The notes: generated from the letters alone by a model not told the origin. Shown: positions 2,170-58,864, numbered from the stretch's first letter. The stretch: 64,000 nucleotides of DNA from Nitrospirota bacterium (GCA_963721805.1 CAVRJY010000001.1:32001-96000), one strand, 5' to 3'. Numbers and translations are program-made.

Positions 2170-2336
2170 AAAGCGCTCCAAATCGCTTGATACTTCGTTG
2201 GGCTTCAAAGACTCGCCCTCTATGTACGCCCAAGTACACCATCGGGCGGTCTTCTCGCCCTGCCTCGTCTGAAGACGATTTGGGCGCGCTTTGCGGGGAG
2301 TAAAGAAGCCCCCGCGCCCCCGCGGTCAACGGCGTT
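2170..2336 (-). repeat. R element copy 1 (subtype A)
   Basis: Near-identical to copies at 11175, 20792, 40413, 41680, 43336 and 48564. Confidence 0.9.
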
Positions 2337-2394
2337 ATAATATTTTGCATTCACGCGTTTCAAGTTTCGGAGTGTTATAGCGGGTAGGTTGTTC

Positions 2395-2573
2395 AATCAA
2401 TGCCGTTGACCGCTCGCACGATTAAGCATCGGAAACTTAAAGCGCGATAAATCGCGTCAGACTAGGAACGGCGAGCGGGCCAACCGGAGGCGTATATGGA
2501 CATACGTTGAGGATTGGGCCCGCTTGGTCAAATAGTGCCGTGACGCAGTATCACGCGCATTTAGCGCGACTTT
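2395..2573 (+). repeat. R element copy 2 (subtype B)
   Basis: Begins AATCAATGCCGTTGACC; stem AAAGCGCGATAAATCG...ATTTAGCGCGACTTT; homologous to 58681-58864. Confidence 0.85.
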
Positions 2574-2625
2574 CAAATATGGTATCATTAAAGCTCATTT
2601 TTTCACTTCGGGGGTATAACCAGCT

Positions 2626-3222
2626 ATGGCAAGAATTGAGCGTTGCGTTATCAGCGTTTTCGACAAGACCGGAGTAGTCGAGCTCGCCCGCGAACTAAGC
2701 GCGCTGGGCGTCGAGATCCTCTCCACCGGAGGCACCAGCCGCACGATCAAGGCGGCCGGAGTGCCCGTGAAGGACGTATCGGAGCACACCGGCTTCCCCG
2801 AGATGATGGACGGCCGCGTAAAAACCCTTCACCCCAAGGTCCATGGCGGCCTGCTCGCGCGGCGCCGAAACCCGAAGGACATCGCCGAGATGGCAGCCAA
2901 CGGCATCCTCCCGATAGACCTCGTCGTAGTGAACCTCTACCCGTTTGAGAAGGTCACCGCTAAAGAGGGGGTCACGTTCGAGGACGCGATAGAGAACATC
3001 GACATCGGGGGCCCGACGATGCTGCGCGCGGCCGCCAAGAACTTCGAGGACGTGACCGTGGTGGTCGACCCGGCGGACTATGCGCCCATATTAAGCGAGA
3101 TGAAGGCCAACGGCGGGGCGACGACGCGTGAGACACGCTACCGGCTTTGCAGGAAGGTGTTCGCGACGACCTCGCGGTACGACTCGATCATCAGCGCGTA
3201 TCTGGAGAAGACCCCGCTATGA
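2626..3222 (+). CDS. purH: IMP cyclohydrolase (stand-alone PurH N-terminal MGS-like domain)
   Basis: [39 protein letters not shown]. Only 198 aa; the stop overlaps the purD start. Confidence 0.88.
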
Positions 3223-4490
3223 AGGTCCTCGTAATTGGCGGAGGGGGCAGGGAGCACGCGATCTGCTGGGCGCTCTCGCGCTCGCGGAGCGTGGACAAGA
3301 TCTTCTGCGCTCCCGGAAACGCCGGTATCTCCTCCATCGCGGAATGCATAGACATCAAGCCCACGGACTTCGGCGCGCTTCTGGACTTCGTCAAGTACGA
3401 GTGGATCGAATTAACCATAGTAGGCCCGGAGGTGCCGCTCTCTATGGGCATCGCCGACGCGTTTGAGAAGGAGGGCCGCAGGATAGTCGGCCCTACGCGC
3501 GCCGCGGCGCAGCTTGAAAGCAGCAAGGCCTTCGCCAAGGACTTCATGCGCCGCCACGGGATTCCGACCGCCGCATACAACACCTTCACCTCATACACCC
3601 AGGCCGAGGACTACATCCGCCTCAAGGGCGGCCCGATGGTCATAAAGGCCGACGGCCTCGCCGCGGGCAAGGGCGTCATCATGGCCCAGACGTACGACGA
3701 GGCGATAGACGCGATACGCATGATACTTAAAGACCGCGCGTTCGGCGAGGCCGGCGAGCGCGTCGTGATCGAGGAGTGCCTCACCGGCGAGGAGGCCTCG
3801 TTCATCGCCTTTACGGACGGCCACAAGATCGTCCCGATGGCGAGCTCACAAGACCACAAGCGCATATTCGACCGCGATGAGGGCCCGAACACCGGGGGGA
3901 TGGGCGCATACAGCCCGGCCCCGGTCGTGACCCCGGCGCTCGAGACCGAGATCATGGAGCGGATCATGTACCCTGTGCTGCGCGGGATGCGCAACGACGG
4001 GATCGTGTATAAGGGCGCGCTGTACGCCGGTGTCATGGTCAAGGATGGAAAGCCCTCTGTGCTGGAGTTCAACTGCCGCCTCGGCGACCCCGAGACGCAG
4101 CCGATACTGGCGCGCCTGGAGACGGATTTTGTCGATCTCTGCCTCGCGGTGACGGACGGCAAGCTCGCGGAGCTTGAGCTAAAGTGGCGTCAGGAGGCCG
4201 CGGTATGCGTCGTGATGGCCGCGGCCGGGTATCCGGGCGAATACAAAAAAGGCATCCCGATAGAGGGGCTCGATGCGGCCTCTTCGATGCAGGACGTGGT
4301 CGTATTCCATGCCGGAACGGGATACCGCGACGGGAAGATCGTGACCGCCGGGGGCCGCGTGCTAGGCGTGACCGCGCTTGGCGAGGATATCGCCGCGGCG
4401 AAGGCGCGGGCGTACGAGGCGGTCGGGAAGATAAGATTCGAGGGCGCGCAGTACAGGCGCGACATCGCTGACAGGGCCGTGGGTCGGTAG
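3219..4490 (+). CDS. purD: Phosphoribosylamine-glycine ligase
   Basis: [49 protein letters not shown]. Confidence 0.96.
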
Positions 4491-4529
4491 TTCGATCCAA
4501 ATTCTCGCTGCGCTCGGATTTGGATCGGG
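4491..4529. repeat. Intergenic hairpin with TCGCTGCGCTC loop
   Basis: GATCCAAATTC-TCGCTGCGCTC-GGATTTGGATC; related hairpin at 19664-19698. Confidence 0.65.
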
Positions 4530-4566
4530 CGTTAACGACACAATACATGCGACAGGGGGTGGGCAG

Positions 4567-5058
4567 ATGCAGGTGCTTATATTGATGGGCTCGGACTCGG
4601 ACTTGCAGGTGATGGAGGAGGCAGCGAAGGCGCTCGAGTCCTTCGGCATCTCGTACAAGCTCACGATAGCCTCCGCGCACCGCACCCCGGAGCGCGCGGC
4701 CAGGCTCGTGGCCGAGGCCGAGAAGAAGGGCGCGTACGCGATCATCTGCGGCGCGGGGATGGCCGCGCACCTGGCAGGGAACGTCGCCGCCAATACGATC
4801 CTCCCCGTGATCGGCGTGCCGATCAGCTCGTCCACCCTTAACGGCATGGACGCCCTGCTCTCAACCGTGCAGATGCCGCCCGGCGTGCCCGTGGCGACCG
4901 TATCGATAGGCAAGGCCGGGGCGCGCAACGCCGCGATACTCGCGATACAGATCATCGCGCGCTCGGACAAGGGGCTCGCCCAGAAGCTCCGCGCGTACAA
5001 GAAGCGCATGGCCGACGAAGTCACGAAGAAGGCCGCCACGCTGGAGCGTGAGGGCTGA
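4567..5058 (+). CDS. purE: N5-CAIR mutase
   Basis: ILMGSDSD, SAHRTP, AGMAAHLAG, LLSTVQMPPGVPVATV. Confidence 0.96.
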   Translation: MQVLILMGSDSDLQVMEEAAKALESFGISYKLTIASAHRTPERAARLVAEAEKKGAYAIICGAGMAAHLAGNVAANTILPVIGVPISSSTLNGMDALLSTVQMPPGVPVATVSIGKAGARNAAILAIQIIARSDKGLAQKLRAYKKRMADEVTKKAATLEREG

Positions 5059-7596: not shown

Positions 7597-7669
7597 TTCA
7601 CCGCTTCCCCTCCACTATCGCAATCTCGTCATATTATATCCGAGCGATGGCGGGGATTGGATAATTATC

Positions 7670-7696
7670 TCGTGCGAGCGGTCAACGGCATTGATT
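7670..7696 (-). repeat. R element 5'-end fragment (subtype B)
   Basis: Reverse complement is identical over 27 nt to 2395-2421 (AATCAATGCCGTTGACCGCTCGCACGA). Confidence 0.85.
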
Positions 7697-7768
7697 ATGT
7701 ATCGCGTTTTCGGGGGGTAACGTGGCCAAGCCGCTGCCTTGGCCTCTGTGAAATTGGAGTGGGAAAGA

Positions 7769-8215
7769 TCAGGCTTTATTCCCAGCGTCGGAAAAAAATT
7801 TATTAATTTTGCGAGTGAGTTGAACATTATCGATTAACTGACATTCCCATACTACCAATACTTGCCATCCAAGTTTTTTCAGTTGCTTAACGTTTATTCT
7901 GTCTCGGTCGATATTTCTTTGAATTTTGGGTATCCAATAATCAACATTCGACTTAGGTTTTCTTCTTCCTTCCTTGCAGCTATGTCCGTGCCAAAAGCAG
8001 CCATTGATAAAGATAGCCTTTTTCTTTTTGAGCCATGCTAAGTCTGGTTTCCCCGGTAAATCCGCCCTATATAGACGATATCCAGCATATCCGAGTCTCC
8101 ATACAATACGGCGGATTTGCAGCTCAGACATGGTGTTTTTTGCACGTATCTGGCGCATATTGTGTGATCGTCTTAGCGGGTCGATATTATCCATAACGCT
8201 TAGCCCTCTTGTCAT
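7769..8215 (-). CDS. vsr: Very short patch repair endonuclease
   Basis: RSHNMRQIRAKNT, LPGKPD, FINGCFWHGH, YWIPKIQRNIDRD, LGWQVLVVWEC. Confidence 0.93.
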   Translation of the reverse strand: MTRGLSVMDNIDPLRRSHNMRQIRAKNTMSELQIRRIVWRLGYAGYRLYRADLPGKPDLAWLKKKKAIFINGCFWHGHSCKEGRRKPKSNVDYWIPKIQRNIDRDRINVKQLKKLGWQVLVVWECQLIDNVQLTRKINKFFSDAGNKA

Positions 8216-8248
8216 TAATGCATGGCGTAATTGCTGGGCTAAATAGGG

Positions 8249-9109
8249 CTAAACTGCAAGGTCTAAAGGTAAATCAGAAATATCCTTTAGCCTCTTGCCT
8301 TCAACCATTATTTTTAAAAGCTCCATTGCTTCTTCATTTTGAAGAGTATTTACTCTTTCTTGGAGTTCATGTAAGGCAAAATGATATACACAATCAATTT
8401 CGCCAGTTCCTAACGCAATGGAAGATAACCGGCTGGGAAGAGGCTCTGCGGTAACAACAACAATATGCGGCAGATGCCCTTTTCGGTTCTTTATAAGATT
8501 GAGCGCTTCAGAGCGGCTATTCTGGCTTCTATCGGAGCGGATAGTCCATTTGGATGAGATGGAGGCATGCAAAAGTGGTTTGCCTCCGTTTGCCTTTCGC
8601 AGATCGGCTTTTCTTGCAACAGATTCATCAACCAATATATTAGTTTTATTGATTTCATCATCCTCAAGCAGATGGCGTATTATGATCACATCGGGTGTTA
8701 TAGTGTAATCGCTACCCAAAGAAGCGGCAAGCTCTGGATCATGTTTCGCCGCTTTGTCTAACGCTATGAGATGCTTATATTGCTCAAACTCAGCAATTGC
8801 AAGGCGGTTTCGATTTCCGATCCTTCGAATTTCCCATCTGCCGGGCCTAATATTGCCAAGAGCAAGAAAGGTTTCTTGAATATAATCTGCTGTGATTGCT
8901 TCAAACTCAGACCCGCTTGTTTGGCCCGCCAAGCGTTTACCGGTTTCACTTTGTAGTTTCTCTGCTATTCCAGAGGCGATACGTACTGAAAGCTTATTAT
9001 CCTTGTCAGCATTGCTGGGAATGCCATGGGCGTCAATTGTCAAAACGGACTCTAACAGCTTTGCATGGAATTTTTTGCGAGCCTTAGCGATAAAAGATTC
9101 TTTAGGCAT
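8249..9109 (-). CDS. Type II restriction endonuclease, NgoMIV family
   Basis: GQTSGSEFE, LGSDYTITPD, LHASISSKWTIRSDRSQNSRSEALNL motifs. ATG at 9109 overlaps the MTase TGA; 286 aa. Confidence 0.85.
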   Translation of the reverse strand: MPKESFIAKARKKFHAKLLESVLTIDAHGIPSNADKDNKLSVRIASGIAEKLQSETGKRLAGQTSGSEFEAITADYIQETFLALGNIRPGRWEIRRIGNRNRLAIAEFEQYKHLIALDKAAKHDPELAASLGSDYTITPDVIIIRHLLEDDEINKTNILVDESVARKADLRKANGGKPLLHASISSKWTIRSDRSQNSRSEALNLIKNRKGHLPHIVVVTAEPLPSRLSSIALGTGEIDCVYHFALHELQERVNTLQNEEAMELLKIMVEGKRLKDISDLPLDLAV

Positions 9110-10071
9110 CAGATCACCTTCTTCAATTTTCTTTTTGATGCTAACTCCATTGCGGACTTTATTTGATATCCTACAGCGCACGCTACCGGTGAAGGAAAAG
9201 CATTGCCTACCTGCCGGTATGCAGCTGTCTTCTTTCCGTGAAATTGCCATTCATCTGGAAAGCCTTGTATGCGGGCGGCCATCCGCACCGTTAAGCGTGG
9301 CATACCTATAAAATCACGATCAGGCGCAAGGTCAGCGATTCCGTGGCCATCAACGCCCAAACTGGCCCATGCACGTTTTGCACGCGTCGGGCCTAAATCT
9401 GGCCCTCCATGTTTCTTGCTGCCACCGACCAGCGTTGGGGCAATGTCACAGGCGCGTTCTCTCCAGGATTTAGCGCCTCTCCAGCCACGCTCTGCCATTA
9501 GGTCAAATAAAACTTTCCCAACAGAAGGCGGATTGAGCTTGTATGGTTCAGGCCAATTGAAGTGATCAGCCAGATCGCTTCGCAATGCAACAAAAACCAC
9601 GCGTGGGCGCAGCTGCGGAACCCCATAATCACAGGCATTCAAAAGACGCCACTCGGTTGAATAGCCAAGCTTGCGTAGTGCTTTCACGATGCCCGCCCGA
9701 TATTCGTCAAAGACAGTATCGAGCAAGCCTCGGACGTTTTCAAGCATAACGGCGCGTGGACGGCATTCGCTAATAAGCCGAATCGCTTCTGGAAACAAAT
9801 CCCGCTCATCTTCATCCCCGAGCTGCTTACCTGCTTTAGAAAATGGCGGACAAGGAACACCCCCGGCAATCAGATCAACTCCGGCATAGTGCTTCGCGTT
9901 GAAATCCTTAATATCACCTTCAAGCACCATCCATCCCGGACGGTTGAGCCTAAGTGTAGCGCAGGCAGATGGGTCAATCTCAACAAGACACGCGTGCTCA
10001 AACCCGGCCACCTCCAAGCCCAAAGCCTGGCCGCCAGCACCAGCACATATCTCAATCGACGTTAACGGCAT
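9109..10071 (-). CDS. DNA (cytosine-5)-methyltransferase, cognate to the NgoMIV-like REase
   Basis: EICAGAGG (motif I), GGVPCPPFS (IV), ENVRG (VI), QLRPR (VIII), YRQVGNA (X). Confidence 0.93.
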   Translation of the reverse strand: MPLTSIEICAGAGGQALGLEVAGFEHACLVEIDPSACATLRLNRPGWMVLEGDIKDFNAKHYAGVDLIAGGVPCPPFSKAGKQLGDEDERDLFPEAIRLISECRPRAVMLENVRGLLDTVFDEYRAGIVKALRKLGYSTEWRLLNACDYGVPQLRPRVVFVALRSDLADHFNWPEPYKLNPPSVGKVLFDLMAERGWRGAKSWRERACDIAPTLVGGSKKHGGPDLGPTRAKRAWASLGVDGHGIADLAPDRDFIGMPRLTVRMAARIQGFPDEWQFHGKKTAAYRQVGNAFPSPVACAVGYQIKSAMELASKRKLKKVI

Positions 10072-10213
10072 GTATTTCGAGCTATAATTATTATGCGGAA
10101 TCCCATGAGATATTCTAACAGACTACAATCGCATTGTGTCAAAAAATGAAGCACTCTGTGTTATAAACGTCGGCCCATTAGATGCCATATGCTTCCCCTT
10201 TCCACTAACCATA

Positions 10214-10813
10214 GTGAAGCTCCCCGTGGCAAGCCACGGGGCATCCGTGGCGCAGCTATAAGTCCAGCTGCGCAGGCAATTGCTTCTCTGCTCTGTGGCC
10301 GCGTATGTATTTGCGGATCATTTCCGAGGTCAAGCTGTCCCCGACTGTCCGCGCAAAGTACCCATCCTCCCACAGCTCACCCTTCCATAGTCTTTGCCTC
10401 AGCGATGGGTATTGCTTGAACAGCTCACGGGCGCTGATACTTTTCAGGGTTCTGACCACCACCCCTATCGAGTACCGTGGCGGGAACGATAGAAATATAT
10501 GCACATGGTCCTCCGCCACTTCCATCTCCACTATCTCATATTCATACTCTTCAGCTATCTCCCTGAAAAGTTCCGCGCACCGCTCGCGCATGTAACTTTG
10601 CGCGAACAGTCTCTTGCGATACTTAGGACACCATACCAGATGGTACCCGGTGTCATATACAGCGTGACTCGTCCTGCGTAACCCCATGCCTCATGATAGC
10701 CCGCAATTGCCTCGGCGGGAAAGGGGGACTTCCAGCCCCCCTTACATCCCCCCGGCAGGGATGCCATTCATCCCCGTGGCAAGCCACGGGGCATACTGGC
10801 ATGGTTTTCGTTA
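10214..10813 (-). mobile_element. IS200/IS605-family element, tnpA only (ends approximate)
   Basis: Identical 24-nt subterminal hairpins TCCCCGTGGCAAGCCACGGGGCAT at 10221-10244 and 10771-10794 bracket a Y1 transposase. The minus-strand right end reads GGGAGCTTCAC. Confidence 0.85.
10256..10687 (-). CDS. tnpA: IS200-family Y1 (HUH) transposase
   Basis: YHLVWCPKYRK, DHVH (HUH), LWEDGYFARTVG...IRKYI. Confidence 0.93.
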   Translation of the reverse strand: MGLRRTSHAVYDTGYHLVWCPKYRKRLFAQSYMRERCAELFREIAEEYEYEIVEMEVAEDHVHIFLSFPPRYSIGVVVRTLKSISARELFKQYPSLRQRLWKGELWEDGYFARTVGDSLTSEMIRKYIRGHRAEKQLPAQLDL

Positions 10814-10962
10814 ATCAAAAACGCACGTTTTCTAATTTTTCCTATTAGCTTCGGTTTATATATAAACCGTAGTTGGATCGACATTTTGTGCGGAGTGTGC
10901 TTCAATACGGAATGGGCCAGATAAGGTCATATTGGAGGGCGCGGAAAGCACTCGACGGCATC

Positions 10963-11178
10963 CGGAAAAATGCCTTTGAGTGCCCGGTTGGCGCATCCGA
11001 ACAAAACCCCGAAAAACCGGCTAAAACATCCGAACATCCGAACACCCTCAAAACAAGAAAATGTAGGCTTTTCGCATGGTTTCACACTATTTTACGCCCA
11101 ACATCCGAACAAAAACGGCAAAAACGCGCGCGCACGCGCGCGGAATGCATAACTATACCTATGACCGGCCCTCAAATC
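10963..11178 (+). repeat. Leader with four ATCCGAACA motifs, homologous to 48761-48956 (reverse strand)
   Basis: ATCCGAACA at 10995, 11028, 11036 and 11103. Shares GGAAAATGCxTTTGA and AAAACGCGCGCGC blocks with the second locus. Confidence 0.75.
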
Positions 11179-11352
11179 ATGCCGTTGACCTTGTGGGGTG
11201 CGGGGGGCTTCCGTCATCCTCTCCCCCCGAAAGCGCGCCCAAATCGACTTCAGACAAGGCAGGGCGAGAAGACCGCCCGATGGTGTACTTGGGCGTACAT
11301 AGAGGGCGAGTCTTCGATGCCCAACGCAGTATCAAGCGATTTGGCGCGCTTT
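11175..11352 (+). repeat. R element copy (subtype A)
   Basis: ATGCCGTTGACC...AAAGCGCGCCCAAATCG...CGATTTGGCGCGCTTT. Confidence 0.9.
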
Positions 11353-11380
11353 GAAAGACCGTGCATGAAGGAGGTAAGCG

Positions 11381-40380: not shown

Positions 40381-40411
40381 CGGGGGGCCGCTTGGCCCCC
40401 CTTTCTTTTTT
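40381..40411 (+). terminator. Rho-independent terminator after dnaN
   Basis: GGGGGGCC-GCTT-GGCCCCCC followed by TTTCTTTTTT. Confidence 0.8.
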
Positions 40412-40412
40412 C

Positions 40413-40593: not shown

Positions 40594-40667
40594 CTGAAAA
40601 ACTTCTTGGAATGCACAGGGCAGTTGCGGTATGATTTGCGCATGACCTTGCGTGGAGAAAGATTATT

Positions 40668-41426
40668 ATGAACGACCCTAACGGAGTATCTGCTCCTATC
40701 ATCCATCGCATAAAGCGACCTCGGGGTTTTACAATCTTGGCTTTCCTTCAAGCATTTTTGGCTGTTGGTGGAATCGGTAACGGTATTTTTCTCGATTCAT
40801 CATATGGTAGCGTCCCCAAACTCTTAGCCCTTGTTTATGGTCTAGCTGCGCTGGCATCTGCGATAGGTCTTTGGACAGTTCGACCTTGGGCATTGCAGTC
40901 CACAATAATTTTGTCCATGGCGACATTAATACGAATATTCAATCTGCAATTTGGAGCGAATGAAAGCCAGAGCATTCCTTTGAGTGTATTTGTTCCATAT
41001 GTATTGGTAGTTGGTTTTTTATTAGTGCTGATGCTTTATTATGTCAAAAAAGAACTTTCGAGAAGCCTAACCAATAGCTTAGTTTCAGAAGGACTTATCC
41101 CTAACCCAAATAGCAAGCAAAGTGTTTCTGTGGTCAGATCAGTTTTATATTCCTGCATATTATTTTTGATCGTCTCGTTTATCAATTTTGTCATAACAAT
41201 AGTTTTCATAAGCAAGGATCTTGTCACAGGTGCCATCTTTAATGCATTATTAAACTTGCTGCCTATTTATCTTCTTGCAAAATATTTTATTGCGCCCTTA
41301 AAGAGCAAGACAATTTATATTGCGTTCTTCATAGGCTCAATCATCGCATCAGTTATTTTAGTGATACCGTATGGTGATTATGTTTGGGATTTTATTTTTG
41401 ATTTACTTAGACACCATTTTAATTAA
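40668..41426 (+). CDS. AT-rich hypothetical multi-pass membrane protein
   Basis: 252-aa ORF with about 7 hydrophobic segments; base composition visibly unlike flanking genes. Confidence 0.65.
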   Translation: MNDPNGVSAPIIHRIKRPRGFTILAFLQAFLAVGGIGNGIFLDSSYGSVPKLLALVYGLAALASAIGLWTVRPWALQSTIILSMATLIRIFNLQFGANESQSIPLSVFVPYVLVVGFLLVLMLYYVKKELSRSLTNSLVSEGLIPNPNSKQSVSVVRSVLYSCILFLIVSFINFVITIVFISKDLVTGAIFNALLNLLPIYLLAKYFIAPLKSKTIYIAFFIGSIIASVILVIPYGDYVWDFIFDLLRHHFN

Positions 41427-41507
41427 TAGTGACGGGACACGATAGTGACCGACGCATAAGAAGTCGCGGCAGCAGCAACGGCCCAAACAGTAACGCTGTT
41501 TACTCCG

Positions 41508-41651
41508 AAATCTTACATTTGGATTCGTCACATGTAAGATTAGCGCCCAAACTTTACATATGAGCTTGTCTTATGTAAGTTTAGACCTCCAATCTTACAT
41601 ATGGGTTCGTCATACGCAGGCCTAGTGTCCAAATCTTATACATGTCAGACC
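41508..41651. repeat. Degenerate 41-bp tandem repeat (~3.5 units) with internal inverted repeat
   Basis: TTACAT/TTATAC at 41513, 41554, 41595 and 41636; AATCTTACAT-N13-ATGTAAGATT in unit 1. Confidence 0.75.
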
Positions 41652-41679
41652 ACGGAGGCCGAGCTGCACCGCTCACTTT

Positions 41680-41859
41680 TAATCAAAGCCATTGACCTTG
41701 TGGGGTGCGGGGGGCTCCTTTATTCTCTCCCCCGAAAGCGCGCCCAAATCGGCTTCAGACAAGGCAGGGCGAGAAGACCGCCCGATGGTGTACTTGGGCG
41801 TACATAGAGGGCGAGTCTTTGAAGCCCCCAACGACGTATCAAGCGATTTGGCGCGCTTT
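41680..41859 (+). repeat. R element copy (subtype A)
   Basis: TAATCAAAGCCATTGACC...CGATTTGGCGCGCTTT. Confidence 0.9.
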
Positions 41860-41867
41860 AGAGAGGA

Positions 41868-43303: not shown

Positions 43304-43335
43304 AGGGCCGTCCCGGCCCCGAGCACAATAACTAT

Positions 43336-43516
43336 TAATAATGCCGTTGACCTTGGGGGGCCCGGGGGGCGTCAGTTGGCTTCCACACCCCCGAAAGCGC
43401 GCCCAAATCGGCTTCAGACAAGGCAGGGCGAGAAGACCGCCCGATGGTGTACTTGGGCGTACATAGAGGGCGAGTCTTTGAAGCCCAACGCAGTATCAAG
43501 CGATTTGGAGCGCTTT
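43336..43516 (+). repeat. R element copy (subtype A)
   Basis: TAATAATGCCGTTGACC...CGATTTGGAGCGCTTT. Confidence 0.9.
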
Positions 43517-43517
43517 C

Positions 43518-45347
43518 CTACTGGGGATGAGAGAGTTGAGCCTCTGCCTTCTGCCTAAGTTCTCTGGTCTGGGTAAGTGTCGGGTCTATTGCCAGCGCCG
43601 CGTCGAATTCGCGGATCGCGGCCTCTGTCTGCCCGGTCTCCATATAGCATATCCCCAAGTTGTTGTGCGCCTCGGCCAGCCGCGGGTCAAGGCGTATAGC
43701 CTCCCTAAGCTCGGTGATCGCCTCTGAGGTCAGCCCCCCGGCGTAGAGCGCCGCGGCGAGGTCCGCGTGGCCCTGGGCATACCCCGGCTTCGCGGCCACG
43801 GCCTTGCGGTACATCGCTATGGCCTTGTATGTCTCGCCCTTGGCCTCGTGCGCCCGGCCGAGCTTGTCGTACACCTCCGAGAGGTCGGCGTTGATCCCGA
43901 GCACCGCCTTGAAGTGCTCGACGATCTCATCGTCATTGTCTGTAGCCTGCTCCGGCTGCGCGGCCGCCGGGCCCGTATCGAGCGTGTCGTGCGGCAGGGC
44001 GGATGCGGCCCGGTATTGCTCATCCGCGCGCGCGTTATCCCCGGCGGCACGGTACGCGATGCTCAGGTTGAAGTGAGGCCTTCGTTTCAGGGGCGACTTG
44101 CTGACGGCGTCGGACCAAAGCGAGATCTCGTCGTGCCAGACCGCGTTTCGCTCGTATGCCGCCACGCCGAGCGCGGCAACGAGCGCCGCAGAGACGACCA
44201 TAACGGCCCGCGGCCGGACGAACTCGAACCCGAGCGCGACCACGGCGATTATGATACCGGCCGAGGGCAGGTATGCCCGGTGCTCGAAGATCATGTCATT
44301 AAGCGGAAACACGCTCGACTCGACCGAGAGCGTGACGAAGAACCACCATACCCCGTATGCCGCGACCCGCAGCCCCGGCCTCCGGGTGCGGTATGCCCAT
44401 ACCGATGCGGCCAGCAGGAGTACCAGGAAGGCCGCGGATGCGAGCACCCTCGTATCGAGCAGGCTGCGGTAGACCGGCCAGTCGTAGTCGATGTTCTGGC
44501 CGGCCGGGAGGAAGATGAGCCGCAGGTACTCGGGGACGACCGTGATCTGGGTTATAAGGTAGTCGGCCCTCGTGAGGCCGGAGGCCGCACGGCCGGTAGC
44601 CGCGCTGATCGAGCCCCCGGAGGCCGCGATGGTCCAAAACGGTATGATGAGCATCGTGGCCAGGATCGGCGCAAGCGGCCTGAGCCTCTCGCGCCAGCCG
44701 CCCTCGAAGAATGCCGCCTCATAGAGCACGACCGCCACCGGCAGCGTAAAGGCGATCTCCTTGGTCATCATCGCACAGACCGCGCAGATTAAGGCAAGCG
44801 CGTAGCGCGCCAAACCGCCGCGGAGTCTCCATCCGGCATATGCCACGAGCGAGCCAAGATAGAACGCCGCACATAGCGAGGTGAAGCGCTGCGAGATGTA
44901 CGTCACGGCCTGCGTCTCGATCGGGTGCGCCGCGAAGAGCGCGGCCGCGATCAGGGCCGCGGCGGCGCGATGCGCCGAGAGCGTCGAGCCCCTCATGCGC
45001 GGCGTGGCGAGCATCAGCAGCACGAGCAGGTATACGAGCACCGAGTTGATGAAATGTATCGCGATGTTTACGAGGTGAAACCCGCGAAGCCCGTCCGCGA
45101 GCACATTGGCATAGAGCGTGAGGTACGCGACGTACCGCGTGCGGAGCGTATCGGTCACGTTGGAGTTCGTCATCATGCCGCGGTCGAACTTTGCAGGGTC
45201 CGGCCATAGCGTGAAGGACTTAAACCACGGGTTGCCCGGGATGTAGTCGCGGTCGTCGAGGTGGAACGATGCGTCGAGGGTGTTGGAATAGGCCGCGGCG
45301 CAGATCAGCAGCAGCAAGAGGATGCGGGGCCAGTGGCGGGTACTCAC
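43518..45347 (-). CDS. TMTC-like membrane glycosyltransferase with TPR repeats
   Basis: FHLDD, HPIETQAVTYISQR, EHRAYLPS; C-terminal TPRs (AHNNLG). Confidence 0.8.
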   Translation of the reverse strand: MSTRHWPRILLLLLICAAAYSNTLDASFHLDDRDYIPGNPWFKSFTLWPDPAKFDRGMMTNSNVTDTLRTRYVAYLTLYANVLADGLRGFHLVNIAIHFINSVLVYLLVLLMLATPRMRGSTLSAHRAAAALIAAALFAAHPIETQAVTYISQRFTSLCAAFYLGSLVAYAGWRLRGGLARYALALICAVCAMMTKEIAFTLPVAVVLYEAAFFEGGWRERLRPLAPILATMLIIPFWTIAASGGSISAATGRAASGLTRADYLITQITVVPEYLRLIFLPAGQNIDYDWPVYRSLLDTRVLASAAFLVLLLAASVWAYRTRRPGLRVAAYGVWWFFVTLSVESSVFPLNDMIFEHRAYLPSAGIIIAVVALGFEFVRPRAVMVVSAALVAALGVAAYERNAVWHDEISLWSDAVSKSPLKRRPHFNLSIAYRAAGDNARADEQYRAASALPHDTLDTGPAAAQPEQATDNDDEIVEHFKAVLGINADLSEVYDKLGRAHEAKGETYKAIAMYRKAVAAKPGYAQGHADLAAALYAGGLTSEAITELREAIRLDPRLAEAHNNLGICYMETGQTEAAIREFDAALAIDPTLTQTRELRQKAEAQLSHPQ

Positions 45348-46757: not shown

Positions 46758-46788
46758 ATACGAGTATATCACTTTCCCACATGCTGTT

Positions 46789-46853
46789 AAAGCGCACCAA
46801 ATCGCTTGATACGTCGTTAGGCATCGAAGACTCGCCCTCTATGTACGCCCAAG
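46789..46853 (-). repeat. Half R element (3' arm only)
   Basis: Matches the R 3' arm and ends at the TTGGGC apical loop. Confidence 0.85.
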
Positions 46854-48532: not shown

Positions 48533-48563
48533 GGTCACTCATCACCGCTCTCGCCCATTTTCC

Positions 48564-48762
48564 AAAGCGCTCCAAATCGCTTGATACTGCGTTGGGCATC
48601 GAAGACTCGCCCTCTATGTACGTCACAGTACACCATCGGGGTGCCACGGGCACCTCTCCTGAAGAAAGGGCCAGTCGGCCCCTTGTCTGAAGCCGATTTG
48701 GGCGCGCTTTCGGGGGGCACGGATGAAGGACGCCCCCCGCGCCCCACGTGGTCAAAAGCATG
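48564..48762 (-). repeat. R element copy with two S-type hairpins replacing part of one arm
   Basis: R consensus interrupted at 48638-48682 by GGGGTGCCACGGGCACCTCTC and GAAAGGGCCAGTCGGCCCC. Confidence 0.88.
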
Positions 48763-48956
48763 TTCTGATGTCCGCGCTTAGGCATACATACGCATACCGC
48801 GCGCGCGTTTTATTTTAGAGTGTTCGGATATTGGGGGCAAAAGCGAGCCTAATCCGGCGGATTTAAAGGGATTTATGCGATCTCCCGCGTTCGGATGTTC
48901 GGATGTTTTGGCCGAAAATCGGGCAATCATAAGCCGCTCAATCAAACGCATTTTCC
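48761..48956 (-). repeat. Leader homologous to 10963-11178
   Basis: TGTTCGGAT at 48821 and 48896; one-mismatch copies at 48761 and 48888. Confidence 0.75.
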
Positions 48957-49056
48957 CTACTGAGCGCCTAGCCCGCCCAACCACTCCCCTCGCTAATATG
49001 GCCTGTGTATATCCCATACGCGCGATGATAAACCAAGCGGTCGGAACTGCGCCATG

Positions 49057-49082
49057 GGAACTGGTTCCATGGAACCAGTTCC
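49057..49082. other. Perfect 26-bp palindrome
   Basis: GGAACTGGTTCCATGGAACCAGTTCC. Confidence 0.85.
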
Positions 49083-49100
49083 TAGGAGTTGGTTCCGGTG

Positions 49101-50300
49101 TGTAAAGGTTACGCTCTTACCGGACAGTATCAGGCTGGAAAAAGCAGGCGGCAGCCAGCCCTTCCATCGGTTAGAATGTTTCACCACAAAACACAGACCG
49201 AAGGAGGAAGGGCATGACTGCCAAAGAAAAGATATCACAAGGGAGGCTTTCAATGCTTCAGCTGGCCGAGAGGCTCAGGAACGTGTCGGAGGCCTGTCGC
49301 CGCCGGGGGGTGAGCCGCAGCCAGTTTTACGAGTACAAGCGGGCGTTTCAGGAGCAGGGGTTTGCGGGGCTCGCGGACCTTCCGCCGATAGCGCGTAGCT
49401 GTCCCCACAAGACGCCTGAGGAGGCCCGCAAGCGAGTGATCGAGATGAGCCTTGCTCACCCCCGGTGGGGGAAGCAGCGCATCTTCGAGCACCTGCTTCT
49501 GGAGGGCATATTGGTGCGTCCCTCAACTGTGTATCGCATCCAGGTTCGCGAGGGGCTGGAGTCGAAGGCCAAGCGCATCCTCCGGCTTGAGCAGGAGGCT
49601 AACGGCAAGGAGATCGAGCTAACGGAGGAGCAGGTCAAGCTCATCGAGCGGGCCAATCCGTGCTTCAGGGAAAGGCATGTGGAGAGCGCATATCCGGGCT
49701 ATCTGCTCAGCCAGGACACCTTCACGGTGGGCAAGCTCAAGGGCATCGGGACCGTGTATCTGCAGGCCGTGGTGGACACGTACGGCTCTTATGCCTTCGG
49801 CAAGCTGTACACGTCGAAGAGGCCCGAGACGGCGGCCGACGTGCTCTACGACCGCGTGCTGCCGTTTTACGAGGACCATGGCATCAGGGTCCAGCATGTC
49901 CTGACGGACAACGGCTCGGAGTACTGCGGCAAGCTGCTGCGGCATCCGTACGAGCTGTTTCTGGCGCTTCACGACATCGCGCATCGAAGGACGAAGGTGG
50001 CGACACCGAGGACAAACGGATTCGTGGAGCGGTTTAATCGCACCATCCTGGACGAGTTCTTCTCGGAGACGTTCAGGTACCGGTTCTACGCATCGCTCGA
50101 TGAGCTGCAGTATGACCTCGACCGGTGGCTGCACCACTACAACAACGAGCGCCCTCACAAGGGCTATCGCAACATGGGCAGACGGCCAATAGAAACTATC
50201 GAGCTGGGCAAAAAGCTAAGACAGAAAGCTGAGGAGGAGGCCGCCTGATCAGTGCGACCGATGAGATGGAAAACTGTCCGGAGAGCACTGGACTTTTACA
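49101..50300 (+). mobile_element. Complete IS481-family insertion sequence
   Basis: TGT...ACA ends; imperfect IRs (TGTAAAxGT...CCGGACAGT); 8-bp direct repeat TTCCGGTG at 49093-49100 and 50301-50308. Confidence 0.9.
49214..50248 (+). CDS. IS481-family DDE transposase
   Basis: HTH NVSEACRRRGVSRSQFY; SQDTF, TDNGSEY, TNGFVERFNRT, YNNERPH. Confidence 0.92.
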   Translation: MTAKEKISQGRLSMLQLAERLRNVSEACRRRGVSRSQFYEYKRAFQEQGFAGLADLPPIARSCPHKTPEEARKRVIEMSLAHPRWGKQRIFEHLLLEGILVRPSTVYRIQVREGLESKAKRILRLEQEANGKEIELTEEQVKLIERANPCFRERHVESAYPGYLLSQDTFTVGKLKGIGTVYLQAVVDTYGSYAFGKLYTSKRPETAADVLYDRVLPFYEDHGIRVQHVLTDNGSEYCGKLLRHPYELFLALHDIAHRRTKVATPRTNGFVERFNRTILDEFFSETFRYRFYASLDELQYDLDRWLHHYNNERPHKGYRNMGRRPIETIELGKKLRQKAEEEAA

Positions 50301-50350
50301 TTCCGGTGGAGTCTTTGACAAAAAATCTTTTAGTCTTTTCTGGCATTCAA

Positions 50351-51154
50351 TTATTTATCAAAAGGGCTATTGCGGTAATTCACAAGATCCTCGGCGGTCA
50401 TTTCCTTCGGTGGAACAAGACGATAATGTTTTTCAGTCGCTATGCCGATACCATTGCTGCCTTCCTCGAAAGCGAATAGTGCGATCAAGTTGTCCTCCAT
50501 GAATTGCGTCGCAATGGGTCGACATACAAGAGCGGGGAACTTCGCAGCACACATAGCGAAGTCCTGTTCTATCTGCACGATTCCTAGCTGATCCTTTCCA
50601 CCTTTGGCCTGCACAGGGAAGACATATTGAGCCCCGCGCCGATCAACTCCTATATAAAGTTCGTCGGTCTCAATCTGGCCCATTCCTGCAACAGTCGTTC
50701 TCAAATGGCTCTGCAAGGCGTAACAAGTTACGCCGGTAAAGATGTCTATGAGCCTGTTATAGCGCACCTTTGCAAGCAGAGCCTGCTCATCGCTCAAGGC
50801 ATACATCATGATGATTCCTGGAGTGGCGTCCGGTATTTTTGTCTCTGTCAACAATTCATTGGGGTTTATCCGTGGCAACGAGGTAAGCGAGAATTCATAA
50901 CGGGCGGTACCTACTGGCCGTATGACCCATTCCAAACCCTCCGGAGCAAGTTTACGGATGGAATCCGGCAGGGCCGCCCTGTACCGAAAAGTGTAAACAA
51001 TATCGCCAAGATTTTTCGGTAGAACGATACCCAGTTCCTGAGCGGTTCTTACGATCTCTTCTCTTTCGAAAGAGACTTCCGTGGCCATTGCGGTGTAGTG
51101 GCGTTCAAATATCTTTTCGATAAGCTGAGTGTATCTATTTTTACCCTTAGCCAT
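50351..51154 (-). CDS. Putative restriction endonuclease (PD-(D/E)xK-like)
   Basis: GQIETDELYIG...PVQAKGG motif; overlaps the MTase stop; AT-rich. Confidence 0.6.
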   Translation of the reverse strand: MAKGKNRYTQLIEKIFERHYTAMATEVSFEREEIVRTAQELGIVLPKNLGDIVYTFRYRAALPDSIRKLAPEGLEWVIRPVGTARYEFSLTSLPRINPNELLTETKIPDATPGIIMMYALSDEQALLAKVRYNRLIDIFTGVTCYALQSHLRTTVAGMGQIETDELYIGVDRRGAQYVFPVQAKGGKDQLGIVQIEQDFAMCAAKFPALVCRPIATQFMEDNLIALFAFEEGSNGIGIATEKHYRLVPPKEMTAEDLVNYRNSPFDK

Positions 51155-52493
51155 AGGTTCCTCCGGTTCGTTTTCCATTTCGTCGGCCAGTCAGCTTACT
51201 CGGTCCTGGCCATCTTAAAATAACGACTTCCTCGCGCATTTGCTTCTTTGTAGATGTGGCAATTCGTGTGCGAAACAAGTCGATACCGATAAGTTCATAA
51301 CCCTGAGAAACCGCTATGTCAGCCAATAACTGGCCCGTTCGTATCATCACCTGAAGATATGATGCCTGATCCCCTACGACATATCCGAGGTGTGCGCCGG
51401 GCTTCAAGAAAGGGCGGAGTTCGTCAAGGTGACGCGCCATGCCGCCGAAATACAGTTTTGTAACTTTTCCGTATAATTTTTCAAAGCCAGATGTTTTCCC
51501 AAGTTCGATTCTTTTATTTTCTATTTCTTTAGCGATAGCCTGTATATCCTTATTTTTTTCGACCCATTTATCATCATCGTCTCCTTTGTAAACATTCCGG
51601 GTATTGGAGCGGAGAAGTCCTTTTTTGAGTGCTTGAAGTTCAGCCTTGTTATTGATGAATCCAAGCAGAACGGATTCTAGTCTTGTGGTGCGAGTATAGT
51701 CTTTCTCGTTCGGATATGGTGGGGATGTGAAAACGGCATCGATGGAATTAGGTTGCAGTACCTCACCAAAGTGTCTGGAATCGGCATGGAAGACGGTTGC
51801 CGGAACCTGTGCCCTCTTCACAGAACGAAGGTCATCGGCCATGATCCGGACTTCATCAAGCCATGATTCTATAACAGGAGCGTCTAGTTTCTTCTTGGGA
51901 TGAACCCCGACTTCGGGACCGAAGTGAAGGTTGCTTATAGAGAAGACCAGTGCTTTTGCGAGAGCAAGGGACGCATGTCTGTTATATCTTTCGTCTTGGA
52001 GTTTGTGCATTTGCTCCAAAAGAATAATGGTCTTGTGCAGTGGGTGAGGACTGATGGAGTCCTTTAAAAGTAGCTTTATGGTCTCTTGAGATAGAGACCG
52101 CAATTTTCTTCTGCCCCAAGAAGCTATAAGCCTGTTGGCCTCTTCTGCTATCGTTTCCGCATATGCGATAAGATCATCAGGATTAATTCCCCAGTCCAGC
52201 TTAACACCACTAGCAAAGAAGGGCATATGATTGGCTTCGATGCCTATACTAGGTATTCCGTTCAACTTGGCTTCGATAATTGTTGTCCCTGTTCCACAGA
52301 AAGGATCAAGAATTGTGCTTTTATGATTGAGATTAAATTTATTTATGTATTCACGAACAAGATGGGGTGGAAAGGAAAGGACAAAGCGATACCAGTCATG
52401 AAATGCTCGGTCTGTCACTTGAAGTTTATTTGCAGTTCCGTTTGTTCTTTTCGGAGCGATTTCCGTTATTGTTGTAACTGGATTAGTTTGCAC
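51147..52493 (-). CDS. DNA amino-methyltransferase, probably N4-cytosine
   Basis: DPFCGTGTT (motif I) precedes TSPPY (motif IV). Confidence 0.85.
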   Translation of the reverse strand: MQTNPVTTITEIAPKRTNGTANKLQVTDRAFHDWYRFVLSFPPHLVREYINKFNLNHKSTILDPFCGTGTTIIEAKLNGIPSIGIEANHMPFFASGVKLDWGINPDDLIAYAETIAEEANRLIASWGRRKLRSLSQETIKLLLKDSISPHPLHKTIILLEQMHKLQDERYNRHASLALAKALVFSISNLHFGPEVGVHPKKKLDAPVIESWLDEVRIMADDLRSVKRAQVPATVFHADSRHFGEVLQPNSIDAVFTSPPYPNEKDYTRTTRLESVLLGFINNKAELQALKKGLLRSNTRNVYKGDDDDKWVEKNKDIQAIAKEIENKRIELGKTSGFEKLYGKVTKLYFGGMARHLDELRPFLKPGAHLGYVVGDQASYLQVMIRTGQLLADIAVSQGYELIGIDLFRTRIATSTKKQMREEVVILRWPGPSKLTGRRNGKRTGGTYG

Positions 52494-52585
52494 TTCACTA
52501 ATGCTATCAAATCGATGGTAGGTATTTCAATGATGAACGGCGCTTTGCTCATAGCGGATACAAATCTAATCAGCTCCATCCCACG

Positions 52586-52632
52586 AAAGCGCGCGAAATC
52601 GTATCAGACAAGGAAGGGGCCAGTCGGCCCCC
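52586..52632 (+). repeat. Partial R element (5' arm) ending in an S-type hairpin
   Basis: AAAGCGCGCGAAATCGTATCAGACAAGG followed by AAGGGGCCAGTCGGCCCC. Confidence 0.7.
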
Positions 52633-52661
52633 TATGGTATATTAAGTATTGGTGTAAAAGG

Positions 52662-56658: not shown

Positions 56659-56720
56659 ACATAGGGGGCGACCGCCCCTTTGCTCAGATCGCGCACCTTC
56701 AACAAGTCGTTCGTCTGGAT

Positions 56721-56736
56721 TGTTCCACGTGGAACA
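56721..56736. other. parS: parS centromere-like site
   Basis: TGTTCCACGTGGAACA; palindrome extends 56717-56740. Confidence 0.88.
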
Positions 56737-56782
56737 ATCCGTCCTCTCTCGCCAGCCTTTAGCCTGTCTGTTGTGTCCTCAT

Positions 56783-56798
56783 TGTTCCACGTGGAACA
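56783..56798. other. parS: parS centromere-like site
   Basis: Second identical TGTTCCACGTGGAACA. Confidence 0.88.
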
Positions 56799-56967
56799 TC
56801 GCGCGGTCTATTAACTATAGTTACTGACAAGCATCCGGCTAATAGGCGTAACATATTGAAATATATAGTTATTTAGCCCGTCTCTCTGTCGGCTATATGT
56901 TGGGTTTTGTTGCCCGCGCATGTCAGAATCGTGTTGGTGGATGAGCGGATAAGCTGTTGAGGGAGGG

Positions 56968-58635
56968 TCAGTAATCGAGTTTCAGGTTGCGGGTGGTGTC
57001 GGCCGCCTCGGCGCGCTTGAAGGCCGCCACGCGGTATGGCAGGTTCGGGCGGTCTCCGGCGAGGAGCTTCTCTATCGTGAGTATCTGGAGGCGCGGGAAG
57101 TCCCAGTTGAGTATGTCCGAGTGATAGAAGCCCTTTGTCGCGGCCTCGGTGGTCATATCGCGCGTCGGGGGCTCCAAGGTGATGAGGATGCCGAACTCGG
57201 CCTTCTCGCGGTCGGCCACATGGCCCAAATCGCGCATGTCCTTTACCGAGACCTTGCCGCTTTTGACCGAGACTATGCCGCGCGATATCTGGTCCTTGGC
57301 CTCATGGAAGTAGACATAGCCGTCGATCCCGGTGTCCGAGCCCTTCTTCCTGTCCCCGTAGGGCCGCGCGTCTATCAGCGAGAGCGCCCACCACTGGAAC
57401 TGGTAGCGGTCCTGAAGCGCAAGCTCCCGCGCGCCCGTAAGGTCCTCCGGCTCGCCTATGACCTTATAGTCCTTGCCCGGCTCTATCGAGAACATGTGCT
57501 TTAGCCGCCACTTGATGAGGTTCACCGAGAGGTGCGTGACGTCTATCCCTATCCAGCGGCGGTTTAGCCGTTGCGCGGCGGTGATAGTGGTGCCGCAGCC
57601 GCAGAACGGGTCGAGCACCACATCGCCCTCATTCGATGAGGCCTTAATGATGCGCTCCAGAAGCGCCTCCGGCTTCTGCGTCGGATAGCCGAGGCGTTCC
57701 TGTGCATGTGCGGATATTGGATTGATGTCATTTATGACATCTCTAATCGGTACGCCTGCATCTTCATTTATATATCTTTTCAATCCGGGTATTCCGCCGT
57801 CTTTTGCTGGCCAGTAGACCAAACCTTTTTTATCCAGAAGATCTAACTTTTCTTGTGTTGACATTTTATCTAAATCAATTTTCCCCTTTACTTCATTAAG
57901 GATTTTCATGGGGACTGCCCAGTGGCGTCCTTTGGATGTCGGGTCTATATCCCTCCAAGGCTTTCCTGAGTCACCTGTCCTCGTTCCCGCACCAGTTAAA
58001 TCGCCAACACGATAAACTCCGCCTTTGTCTTTATATCTGTAAAAATTCTCAATGTATGTTTCGTCATACTGTTCAAATACAGGATTCCAGACAGGCTCTC
58101 TGTCCTTGCCGTAGAAAAGTATTACATCATGGACTGGCCCCCATCTCTTTGATCCACTATGGCTGCTTGTCCTTTTCCACACTATCTCATTCCTGAAATT
58201 CTTCTTCCCGAATATCGTATCCATTACAACCTTTAGATAGTGTGACGCGGTGGGGTCACAATGCAGATAGATGCTCCCTGTGTCCTTGAGCACGCGCCTG
58301 AGTTCCAAAAGCCGCACGCACATCATCGTGAGATATGCCATCATGTCGTTTACCCCGATGAACGATCTAAACGCGCGCATCATCTCTACCACGTTGGCGG
58401 GCGCGGCCTCGACTATCGCCTGAAACGTCCGCTCCGCGTCCTCGTTCCAGTGCCAGGTGTCCTCAAACGCGGTGATCTGCGCGTCCGAGGACTTGCCGGT
58501 CGGTTCCTTGAAGAGTATGTTGTAGTCGGCCTTTGAGTTAAACGGCGGGTCGAGGTATATCAGGTCTGCCGATGCGTCCGGGACGTAGCGCCTCAGGATG
58601 TCGAGGTTGTCGCCGAAGTAGAGGGTGTTGTCCAT
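56968..58635 (-). CDS. DNA adenine methyltransferase (beta order) with C-terminal nuclease-like domain
   Basis: [28 protein letters not shown]-terminal DTGIDG...VSVKSG. Confidence 0.88.
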
Positions 58636-58680
58636 CGCATCCGATTATAACAAAAGCGCAAAACTCTCACAAAGAAATTT

Positions 58681-58864
58681 AATCAATGCCGTTGACCGCT
58701 CGCGCTTGACCCACGGGCATAACCAAAGCGCGATAAATCGGGGGCGGCTGCCCCTTTACTTCAGACAAGGAACCGGACGAAAAATAACCGGAGGCGTATA
58801 TGGACATACGTCGAGGATTATTTTTCGGGCGGTGACACAGTATGAAGCGATTTAGCGCGGCTTT
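58681..58864 (+). repeat. R element copy (subtype B) with inserted S-type hairpin
   Basis: Homologous to 2395-2573; contains GGGGCGGCTGCCCC at 58741-58754. Confidence 0.85.

Follow-up and report, generated by a model that had tools for sequence, protein, structure and literature searches.

The question raised by this locus, a stretch of 64,000 nucleotides (nt) from a Nitrospirota bacterium (GCA_963721805.1, CAVRJY010000001.1:32001-96000; hereafter the window, numbered from its first letter), is what kind of element the structured intergenic repeat, here called R, that recurs along it might be. A sequence-only reading had taken this repeat, described as about 180 bp long and present in 13 full or partial copies, either for a non-autonomous mobile element with a single-stranded DNA hairpin, similar to repetitive extragenic palindromic sequences (REP/REPIN) and mobilised by an HUH enzyme, or for a dispersed structured RNA. 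The answer that we favour, with a little less than even confidence, is that R is the local offshoot of an ancient, widely distributed family of hairpin repeats, each about 125 nt long and placed at the stop codons of ordinary genes, and that it would once have been mobile, non-autonomous and read in trans as a folded single strand. The parts of this answer that we infer are the past mobility, the recognition of a single strand and the role of paired copies as landing pads; the description of the element (copies, covarying fold, polarity, slots with their cargo, stop-codon habit and distribution) is firm, its mechanism is not. The sequence-only reading had missed the polarity of R towards foreign DNA, its habit of lying at stop codons and the existence of a cross-phylum family.

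Copies of R were located with an iterated nhmmer profile, repeat finding being run on the window too, and the anatomy was taken from alignments of 49 and of 173 copies. The element is about 190 bases long and is made up of four parts: a head (CTAATCA-ATGCCGTTGACC), a linker, a long bulged hairpin and a tail. In type A (112/164 typed copies) the linker is a G-rich stem, and in type B (48/164) it reads GCTCGCACGA... and has no stem. The hairpin, of about 125 nt, runs from AAAGCGCG to CGCGCTTT and has an almost invariant tip, and the tail reads GCGCTTT, usually followed by GAAAAAGG. The loop of the G-rich stem had been said to differ in every copy; the loops do vary in the 49-copy alignment, but they are not unique to each copy, falling into a few recurring classes and sometimes containing a small nested hairpin.

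That the structure is under selection, as the sequence-only reading had proposed, is supported for the 125-nt hairpin by compensatory changes within the genome and across phyla, with 0/500 shuffles comparable. One hairpin folds at -84.9 kcal/mol on the R strand (z -4.34), a value equalled by none of 200 shuffles, and a type B copy is weaker (-62.5 kcal/mol, z -1.72; 10/200 shuffles as good). Within the genome, RNAalifold predicts 33 pairs in the 49 copies, 14 of them with compensatory double changes, and 97.0% of the cells pair as against 90.6% in shuffles. The observed values were reached by 0/500 shuffles on four of five measures and by 10/500 on the remaining one (further pair types), while sliding the partner by 1-3 columns makes pairing fall to 22-46%. 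The exchange of CAAAT/ATTTG for TAAAT/ATTTA between subtypes, pointed out earlier from the window, proved to be real, the pair concerned being C-G in 30, U-A in 10, G-C in 2 and unpaired in 7 of the 49 copies. The cross-phylum alignment comprises 49 sequences, 48 of them distinct, fitted to a covariance model of R; 29 of its 36 pairs have changed on both sides and 88.9% of cells pair versus 64.4% when shuffled (0/500), the tip helix being invariant there by virtue of the retrieval motif, which required that sequence.

R is, moreover, asymmetric. The tip stem reads GGCGTAC/GTACGTC, or GGTGTAC/GTACAT in the majority of local copies, and contains a G-T wobble. In the 173 local copies this pair is G-T in 119, G-C in 45, A-T in 5 and unpaired in 4, and it is G-T in all 48 distinct cross-phylum sequences, a fixity given by construction because the retrieval motif specifies both bases of the pair. 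The two sides of the internal loops, …AGACAAGG… and …ACGNNGTAT…, are conserved and non-complementary, which argues for the recognition of one folded strand and not of two equal transposon ends.

The 2.78-Mb assembly contains 224 matches to the first profile and 250 to the iterated one, of which 173 are full-length. They are dispersed across the larger contigs and amount to 40,129 bases, or 1.45% of the genome. The divergence between nearest neighbours has a minimum of 3.8% and a median of 11%, the copies being 4-30% diverged with no master sequence. The population of near-identical copies that is a trait of REPINs is absent, since 0/173 copies have a neighbour closer than 3%. The insertion sequence (IS) copies of this genome, by comparison, agree at 98.5-100% over 600-1330 bp. 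The best reading of the R copies is that they are old, fixed landmarks in the present genome.

A polarity of the head, and slots with cargo between heads, come in addition to what had been described from the window. The GC content is 0.50-0.53 on the head side and 0.61-0.62 on the tail side, the head flank being the lower one in 152, 154 and 156 of 173 copies at 0.5, 1 and 2 kb, respectively. Neighbouring copies have a median spacing of 1.6 kb when head-to-head and of 8.7 kb when tail-to-tail. There are 55 head-to-head pairs: in 2 the copies touch, in 3 they are separated by more than 17 kb and in 50 by 0.48-8.0 kb, and 45 of these 50 enclose DNA with a GC content of at most 0.55. The cargo of such islets is composed of heterogeneous accessory genes (restriction-modification, toxin-antitoxin, insertion sequences); 20 further islets were found to carry a methylase-Mrr fusion, HigB-type and HepT toxin pairs, a KAP NTPase, an HNH nuclease, an HD-CE/TPR protein, ankyrin repeats and many open reading frames (ORFs) without a family. 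The only sequences common to several islets are IS copies and a module, X, described below. The two arms of one islet are 0.291 apart, compared with 0.287 for random pairs of R, and their head types combine near chance (AB 24, AA 17 and BB 4, versus about 18, 21 and 4 expected), and head type does not tell left from right arms. The slots fit old, fixed arms with younger, unrelated cargo, because paired arms resemble each other no better than random copies do, IS elements and X are the only shared pieces, R is old as against IS copies that are 98.5-100% alike, and duplications are lacking.

Module X is AT-rich, 336 bp long, contains four or five repeats of ATCCGAAC and is present in 55 genome copies, 50 of which adjoin an R head in the same orientation. 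A head-to-head partner lies within 9 kb in 38 of the 50 X-R arms, and X occupies both arms of a slot in 0/52 pairs. The far end of X lies about 25 nt past the model and forms a sharp border, where a 14-bp perfect palindrome, TTAACTATAGTTAA (variants occur), stands exactly at the junction with the cargo; a related TTAATC motif borders the heads without X. The orientation of cargo ORFs relative to X is random (40 away and 39 toward; nearest ORF, 22 versus 11). The module also contains an alternating GC run and a CGGTTTATATATAAACCG palindrome. A bias of X with respect to the replication strand was considered and set aside, the 21 plus and 12 minus copies on contig C1 not being convincing.

Two insertion sequences recur around the slots. 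The IS200-type element has six copies, whose Y1 proteins are identical and whose DNA is nearly so; four of them, the window's included, are in or beside R-bordered islets, and two adjoin TTAAT motifs at the far end of X. The IS481-like element (window about 49095-50300, plus strand; rve integrase of 344 aa) is found with 98.5-100% identity in at least six R-bordered islets.

The tail of R is bound to the ends of genes. According to gene calls obtained by crude ORF scoring, the tail points towards a convergent stop codon in 107/164 copies, at a median distance of 13 nt (61 within 15 nt and 91 within 50 nt), and seven stops overlap the tail; the remaining 57/164 copies precede a gene that reads in the same direction, the median distance being 51 nt. 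Other genomes of the phylum show the same habit in 18 of 28 full-length copies (in 12 at a distance of at most 7 nt), and G180, a genome with the record title Carboxydocellales (an order of Firmicutes), shows it in 13 of 17 copies. As a side observation, TAG is the stop codon in 46/90 genes ending within 40 nt of an R tail, compared with 33% genome-wide (p ~3e-4), and in G180 the gene strand often has TAG at the very end of the tail.

The distribution of R in other genomes shows signs of lineage-wise amplification: BLAST against 40 relatives gave 0 matches, whereas the covariance model has matches in 28 of 150 other sampled genomes of the phylum, including all 11 of one family, and three distant genomes contain 31, 61 and 66 model matches among at most 150 candidates scored in each (one genome had 4, and one 0). 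The tip motif is found at no fewer than 124 loci in species genomes, and 49 of the 80 loci listed match the covariance model. Among the matches listed, record titles name Nitrospira/Nitrospirae, Deltaproteobacteria, Acidobacteriota, Myxococcota and Actinomycetota, and further Firmicutes-type groups, Spirochaetes, Armatimonadetes, Omnitrophota, Binatota and others. An exact-motif scan of genome contigs gave 0 matches, as did two motif scans of metagenome contigs, from which near records may be excluded; two sediment DNA runs assembled at 80% likeness provided short pieces only and no contig bridging R or an islet. Head-to-head dimers recur in G180, where one pair encloses a DUF5131 gene and an ORF without an assigned family. 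In G180, a portion of the 3' arm is found again in the head (…GTTGACAACGCTAGACGGGGAATTTC), a hint as to how heads arose.

Some individual loci deserve mention. In another genome of the phylum, a family member (L035 1501-1675, minus strand) fills the entire spacer between the ATP synthase a and c genes, in antisense, its tail overlapping the atpB stop. At L073 187-422 (minus strand), a thiamine pyrophosphate (TPP) riboswitch match stands at the Rfam threshold (54.4 versus 54.3 bits) and spans 236 nt for a 105-position model, covering an R-like tip motif; it looks as if a hairpin element lies inside the variable stem of the riboswitch. Recurrent neighbours (smpB, atpB/atpE and others) were rejected as a signal, their matches in G000 being only within 3 kb of R, a closeness that chance alone predicts for 250 copies.

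As regards the window, R sequence is present at all 13 places named in the sequence-only reading, 12 of them recovered by nhmmer and the remaining one (7670, minus strand) being a head remnant only. A fragment at 21840-21780 (minus strand), absent from that list, was recovered by nhmmer, so the window holds 13 copies or fragments detectable by the hidden Markov model (HMM) and one head-only remnant. The 5' box AATCAATGCCGTTGACC has 7 matches in the window with at most 3 mismatches, versus 0.08 expected. The features, with the evidence in brackets, are the following.

2164..2344, minus strand: full copy of R, head type A (nhmmer, sequence)
2391..2578, plus strand: full copy of R, head type B, without the G-rich stem (nhmmer, alignment)
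7660..7696, minus strand: head-only remnant of R (motif 7696-7680), left border of the islet 7697-11169 (motif search, by eye)
7697..10212, genes all on the minus strand: islet cargo, with a Vsr endonuclease (7769-8215), an NgoMIV-type restriction enzyme (8249-9250) and a C5 cytosine methylase (9109-10071) (Pfam)
10213..10813, minus strand: IS200-type insertion sequence, Y1 transposase at 10256-10687, ends unrelated to R (one of six identical copies)
10811..11163, plus strand: module X, with ATCCGAAC repeats, immediately 5' of the R head (C1 42811-43163)
11170..11358, plus strand: full copy of R, type A, tail 22 nt ahead of the mscL start at 11381 (nhmmer, fold, Pfam)
20784..20985, minus strand: full copy of R, type A, loop of the G-stem holding a small nested GC hairpin (nhmmer, alignment)
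21780..21840, minus strand: fragment of R, model 112-166 (nhmmer)
24658..24726, plus strand: fragment of R, 3' arm only, model 134-203 (nhmmer)
40405..40601, minus strand: full copy of R, left islet arm, tail towards the end of a dnaN-like gene and its terminator (nhmmer, Pfam)
40602..41674, no strand: islet of 1073 bp, GC 0.40, one ORF (40668-41426) without a Pfam family (Pfam)
41675..41864, plus strand: full copy of R, right islet arm (nhmmer)
43331..43521, plus strand: full copy of R, tail end touching the stop codon of a TPR gene (43518-45347, minus strand) (nhmmer, Pfam)
46783..46853, minus strand: 3' half of R only, tandem small hairpin modules ahead (nhmmer)
48557..48771, minus strand: full copy of R, nested small hairpins, tail towards the rho stop and terminator (nhmmer)
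48777..49021, minus strand: module X, partial (model 93-336), adjoining the head of R 48557..48771 (C1 80777-81021)
49022..52573, no strand: cargo, with an IS481-like rve transposase (49214-50248), an ORF without a family and an N6/N4 DNA methylase (51147-52493) (Pfam)
52574..52643, plus strand: fragment of R, model 59-130, degraded right arm of the islet 48772-52573 (nhmmer)
58676..58870, plus strand: full copy of R, type B, nested hairpin, head towards a methylase-Mrr fusion gene (56968-58635) (nhmmer, Pfam)

The copies at 2164..2344 and 2391..2578 form a head-to-head dimer, with HMM boundaries 46 nt apart and no cargo inside. The tail of the copy at 41675..41864 (HMM end) is about 3 nt from the stop of the citrate synthase gene (41868-43214, minus strand), and the whole gap at 48772-52573 has a GC content of 0.50. 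The restriction system at 7769-10071 (minus strand), comprising the NgoMIV-type enzyme, the C5 methylase and the Vsr mismatch endonuclease, looks complete and fills one islet. Unrelated to R, a tandem 33/36-nt repeat of four copies, 63-90% alike, lies at 12394-12557 in an ORF-rich stretch.

A second repeat family accompanies R. Its members are small GC hairpins (GGGGCC-N4-GGCCCC) with a T-rich or CTCACTATTCGCG tail behind them; the family has 216 genome matches to a loose pattern and is represented in the window at 2112-2137, 20986-21060, 40382-40401, 46860-46970 and 48504-48525. These hairpins occur as terminator-like sites behind genes, as tandem sets separating a stop codon from an R head, and as nested elements inside R; in 20/173 full R copies one of them lies at a single fixed spot, directly after TCAGACAAGG.

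Can R be assigned to a class of elements already described? The REP/REPIN proposal of the sequence-only reading, with an HUH enzyme as mobiliser, is not supported, since neither a RAYT nor TnpB nor, one exception aside, a flanking duplication of at least 8 nt was found, and no pair of copies is closer than 3.8%. No RAYT (REP-associated tyrosine transposase) was found, PF01797 matching only the six identical IS200 copies in the genome, and PF07282 (TnpB) has no match in the genome, which is 94% complete. The end hairpins of IS200 are unrelated to R. In five other carriers, 12 Y1 loci showed no significant match to the R model within about 1.5 kb (best E 0.23). RAYT, TnpB and IS200 were rejected as mobilisers of R. 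As to the REPIN shape of two inverted short REPs, R has a long hairpin and 250 extragenic copies, yet its arms carry conserved non-complementary loops and it has an extra head. The sequence-only reading had also left room for novelty with regard to Rfam, and Rfam 15 gave 0 matches at gathering score on the window; a search with X plus R returned nothing relevant at E up to 5, and another with 20 cross-phylum loci nothing covering the core. No description of the R family was found in the literature searched.

Several known systems are nevertheless similar in part. REP/REPIN elements carry a GTAG-type tetranucleotide, and the REPs of E. coli are often found directly after stop codons. R is like REP/REPIN-RAYT systems in its hundreds of extragenic copies, in a hairpin-forming doublet shape and in long persistence within a lineage (PMC3116915; PMC3337134). 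R differs from them in being a 125-nt hairpin with conserved internal loops and not two short REPs, in lacking a GTAG-type tetranucleotide, a RAYT or suitable Y1 gene and a master sequence, and in having a polar head and a cross-phylum tip. The ERIC/IRU and Correia (NEMIS) elements are imperfect palindromes of about 105-155 bp that are co-transcribed with their neighbours, and for which orientation-dependent effects have been proposed; they carry terminal inverted repeats, are flanked by TA duplications and are not known beyond a single family or genus. With these R shares the long imperfect palindrome; unlike them, it has no detectable duplication, has an extra head, lies antisense at stop codons and is found under titles of many phyla. 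The attC sites of superintegrons are imperfect hairpins of 120-130 nt, homogeneous within a genome and conserved in structure but not in sequence; the small low-GC cassettes at whose borders they lie abound in toxin-antitoxin genes and genes of unknown function. R is similar in length, keeps its structure and also borders small low-GC accessory genes, but it is dispersed and not arrayed, its arms are inverted around the cargo, and it has neither the R-box consensus nor, among the 20 slots scanned, an adjacent integrase. In the pdif modules of Acinetobacter plasmids, accessory genes are bounded by inversely oriented 28-bp XerC/XerD sites; R slots likewise hold accessory modules between inverted sites, which in this case are 190-bp hairpin repeats and chromosomal. 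Finally, an early survey of Geobacter metallireducens catalogued numerous multicopy intergenic families, among them one that has a central palindrome and is matched in other genomes (PMC2700814). That palindrome, GRCGTAGCGCTGCTACGCC as given in a legend of the same paper, is not the tip of R, and no R motif occurs in 12 of its 19 supplement files.

Three other explanations have been weighed. Next in likelihood, though less than probable, comes an action of R on RNA: it may serve as an insulator or 3'-end element, or may modulate the neighbour's translation termination and mRNA decay. Either transcripts from the islet or head side would read R from head to tail, the hairpin stopping, processing or stabilising them before antisense entry into the neighbour, or the reverse complement of R would act in the neighbour's mRNA, within 15 nt of the stop codon. 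E. coli REP sequences are reportedly able to modulate translation termination and mRNA decay, as Liang, Rudd and Deutscher are said to have found in 2015. The convergent stops faced by the tail (107/164 copies here, 18/28 in the phylum and 13/17 in G180) are in keeping with such a role, as are the R pairs flanking foreign genes on both sides, the 85 of 164 nearest head-side genes that read into the head, the T-rich runs after many G180 tails and the copy in the atpB-atpE spacer of another genome, which is therefore probably transcribed. Features of structured RNAs are also seen in R, namely a G-U wobble, internal loops of a tandem G-A-like kind, and covariation in the stems together with conservation of unpaired motifs. 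On the other hand, the 57/164 copies upstream of a co-directional gene do not suit a gene-end role, the local tail is followed by GAAAAAGG and not by a U tract, a 125-nt hairpin with a tip invariant across phyla exceeds what a terminator needs, Rfam has no match, and the five R copies scanned share no recurrent sigma-70-like promoter or terminator pattern. The TTGACC of the head was rejected as a -35 box, as no rightly spaced -10 hexamer exists in type A, type B or G180 heads.

The slots themselves would be explained if R and X formed a platform for site-specific recombination, a dispersed analogue of integron attC sites or pdif modules in which the head, the head-to-head junction and the far palindrome of X would serve as attachment sites for a recombinase inserting and exchanging gene cassettes. 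Old slots with unique, low-GC cargo speak for this idea, together with the sharp far border of X, its 14-bp palindrome TTAACTATAGTTAA at the cargo junction with TTAATC at the X-less heads, the single-armed position of X, which makes the slot polar, and the cargo-free head-to-head dimers both here and in a distant genome. In addition, integron integrases act on folded imperfect hairpins with unpaired bases, which makes such hairpins established integrase substrates. We judge it unlikely all the same: the arms are inverted and not direct, so recombination between them would invert the cargo and not excise it. The attC boxes (RYYYAAC...GTTRRRY) are not found at the hairpin base (AAAGCGCG...CGCGCTTT), which is different again in other lineages, and GTTGACC occurs only in the unpaired head. 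An integron-type direct array next to an integrase was not seen, R being dispersed and no integrase or other recombinase lying beside or within the 20 scanned slots; of the seven tyrosine recombinase genes in the genome, three are in the 300-350 kb bin of contig C2, which has no R. The cargo, moreover, is oriented at random with respect to X (40 versus 39), and family members elsewhere appear mostly as solo copies at gene ends. Still less probable is that R is a classical miniature inverted-repeat transposable element (MITE), that is, a deletion derivative of an IS whose hairpin would represent two long terminal inverted repeats and whose DDE transposase would since have been lost. Its high copy number, intergenic position, palindromic shape and lineage-specific sequence are those of a MITE, and its length is near that of Correia elements and of ERIC (127 bp). 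Flanking duplications of 8 nt or more are missing, however, the internal loops are conserved yet asymmetric, the wobble is fixed, compensatory changes occur among copies of one genome, and the head lies outside the palindrome. No parent IS with the ends of R was found in a comparison that covered IS200 only, whose ends differ, and the tip is kept across phyla, whereas transposon ends diverge with their transposases.

According to the favoured reading, that of an old hairpin-repeat family, R would formerly have multiplied in this lineage as a non-autonomous element, and a trans-acting factor would recognise it as a folded single strand, namely the strand opposite to the neighbouring gene. The tail adjoins a core gene, mostly at its stop codon, with the head pointing away, and two head-to-head copies make up a slot, often with X on one side and with low-GC accessory genes inside. 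Such slots would be landing pads, in which the cargo may turn over and the arms stay.

Several observations weigh against this scheme. Flanking duplications of at least 8 nt are absent from 164 single copies, which behave like shuffled pairs apart from one 16-nt exception, duplications of 2-4 bp being beyond the reach of the test because the ends of R are fuzzy; they are equally absent around 45 whole R-cargo-R units. With neither duplications nor recent copies, mobility follows only from copy number and lineage-specific sequence. No mobilising enzyme was found, as regards RAYT and TnpB in the genome and recombinases in the 20 islets, whose scanned ORFs contain none except IS transposases. The choice of strand depends on few positions, since both strands fold almost equally (-84.9 versus -80.2 kcal/mol, the latter with z -2.80 for the opposite strand of the same copy); outside the fixed wobble, G-T surpasses A-C only slightly in three alignments (35/28, 33/17 and 40/28) and falls below it in a fourth (16/23), and the case for one particular strand as the working strand is thin. 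The closeness to stop codons could partly reflect the deletion of spacers in compact genomes. Other genomes, of lower GC content, do not show the GC contrast on the head side (13/29 copies), which limits the association with islets to the present genome and one example in G180. The rho neighbourhood in five genomes of the same family has no R and no synteny, so that no orthologous empty site can be read there; the alternative to a landing pad would be a cargo-carrying transposon. An extended version of the favoured reading, which seems improbable at present, would see in the R-X-R slots a dispersed cassette-docking system of about 50 fixed pads per genome without a resident recombinase, through which foreign defence and addiction genes would be exchanged, and in the family a folded single-strand signal, antisense at gene ends, read by a conserved cellular machine in many phyla.

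R and X together occupy about 2% of a compact genome and mark most of its small foreign gene islands. If the slots are indeed landing pads, bacteria would have in them a novel means of arranging the defence genes that they acquire. Beyond this genome, a family that lies antisense at stop codons, has a near-invariant tip, appears under the titles of many phyla and has no Rfam match suggests that an interaction taking place where genes end has so far gone unnoticed.

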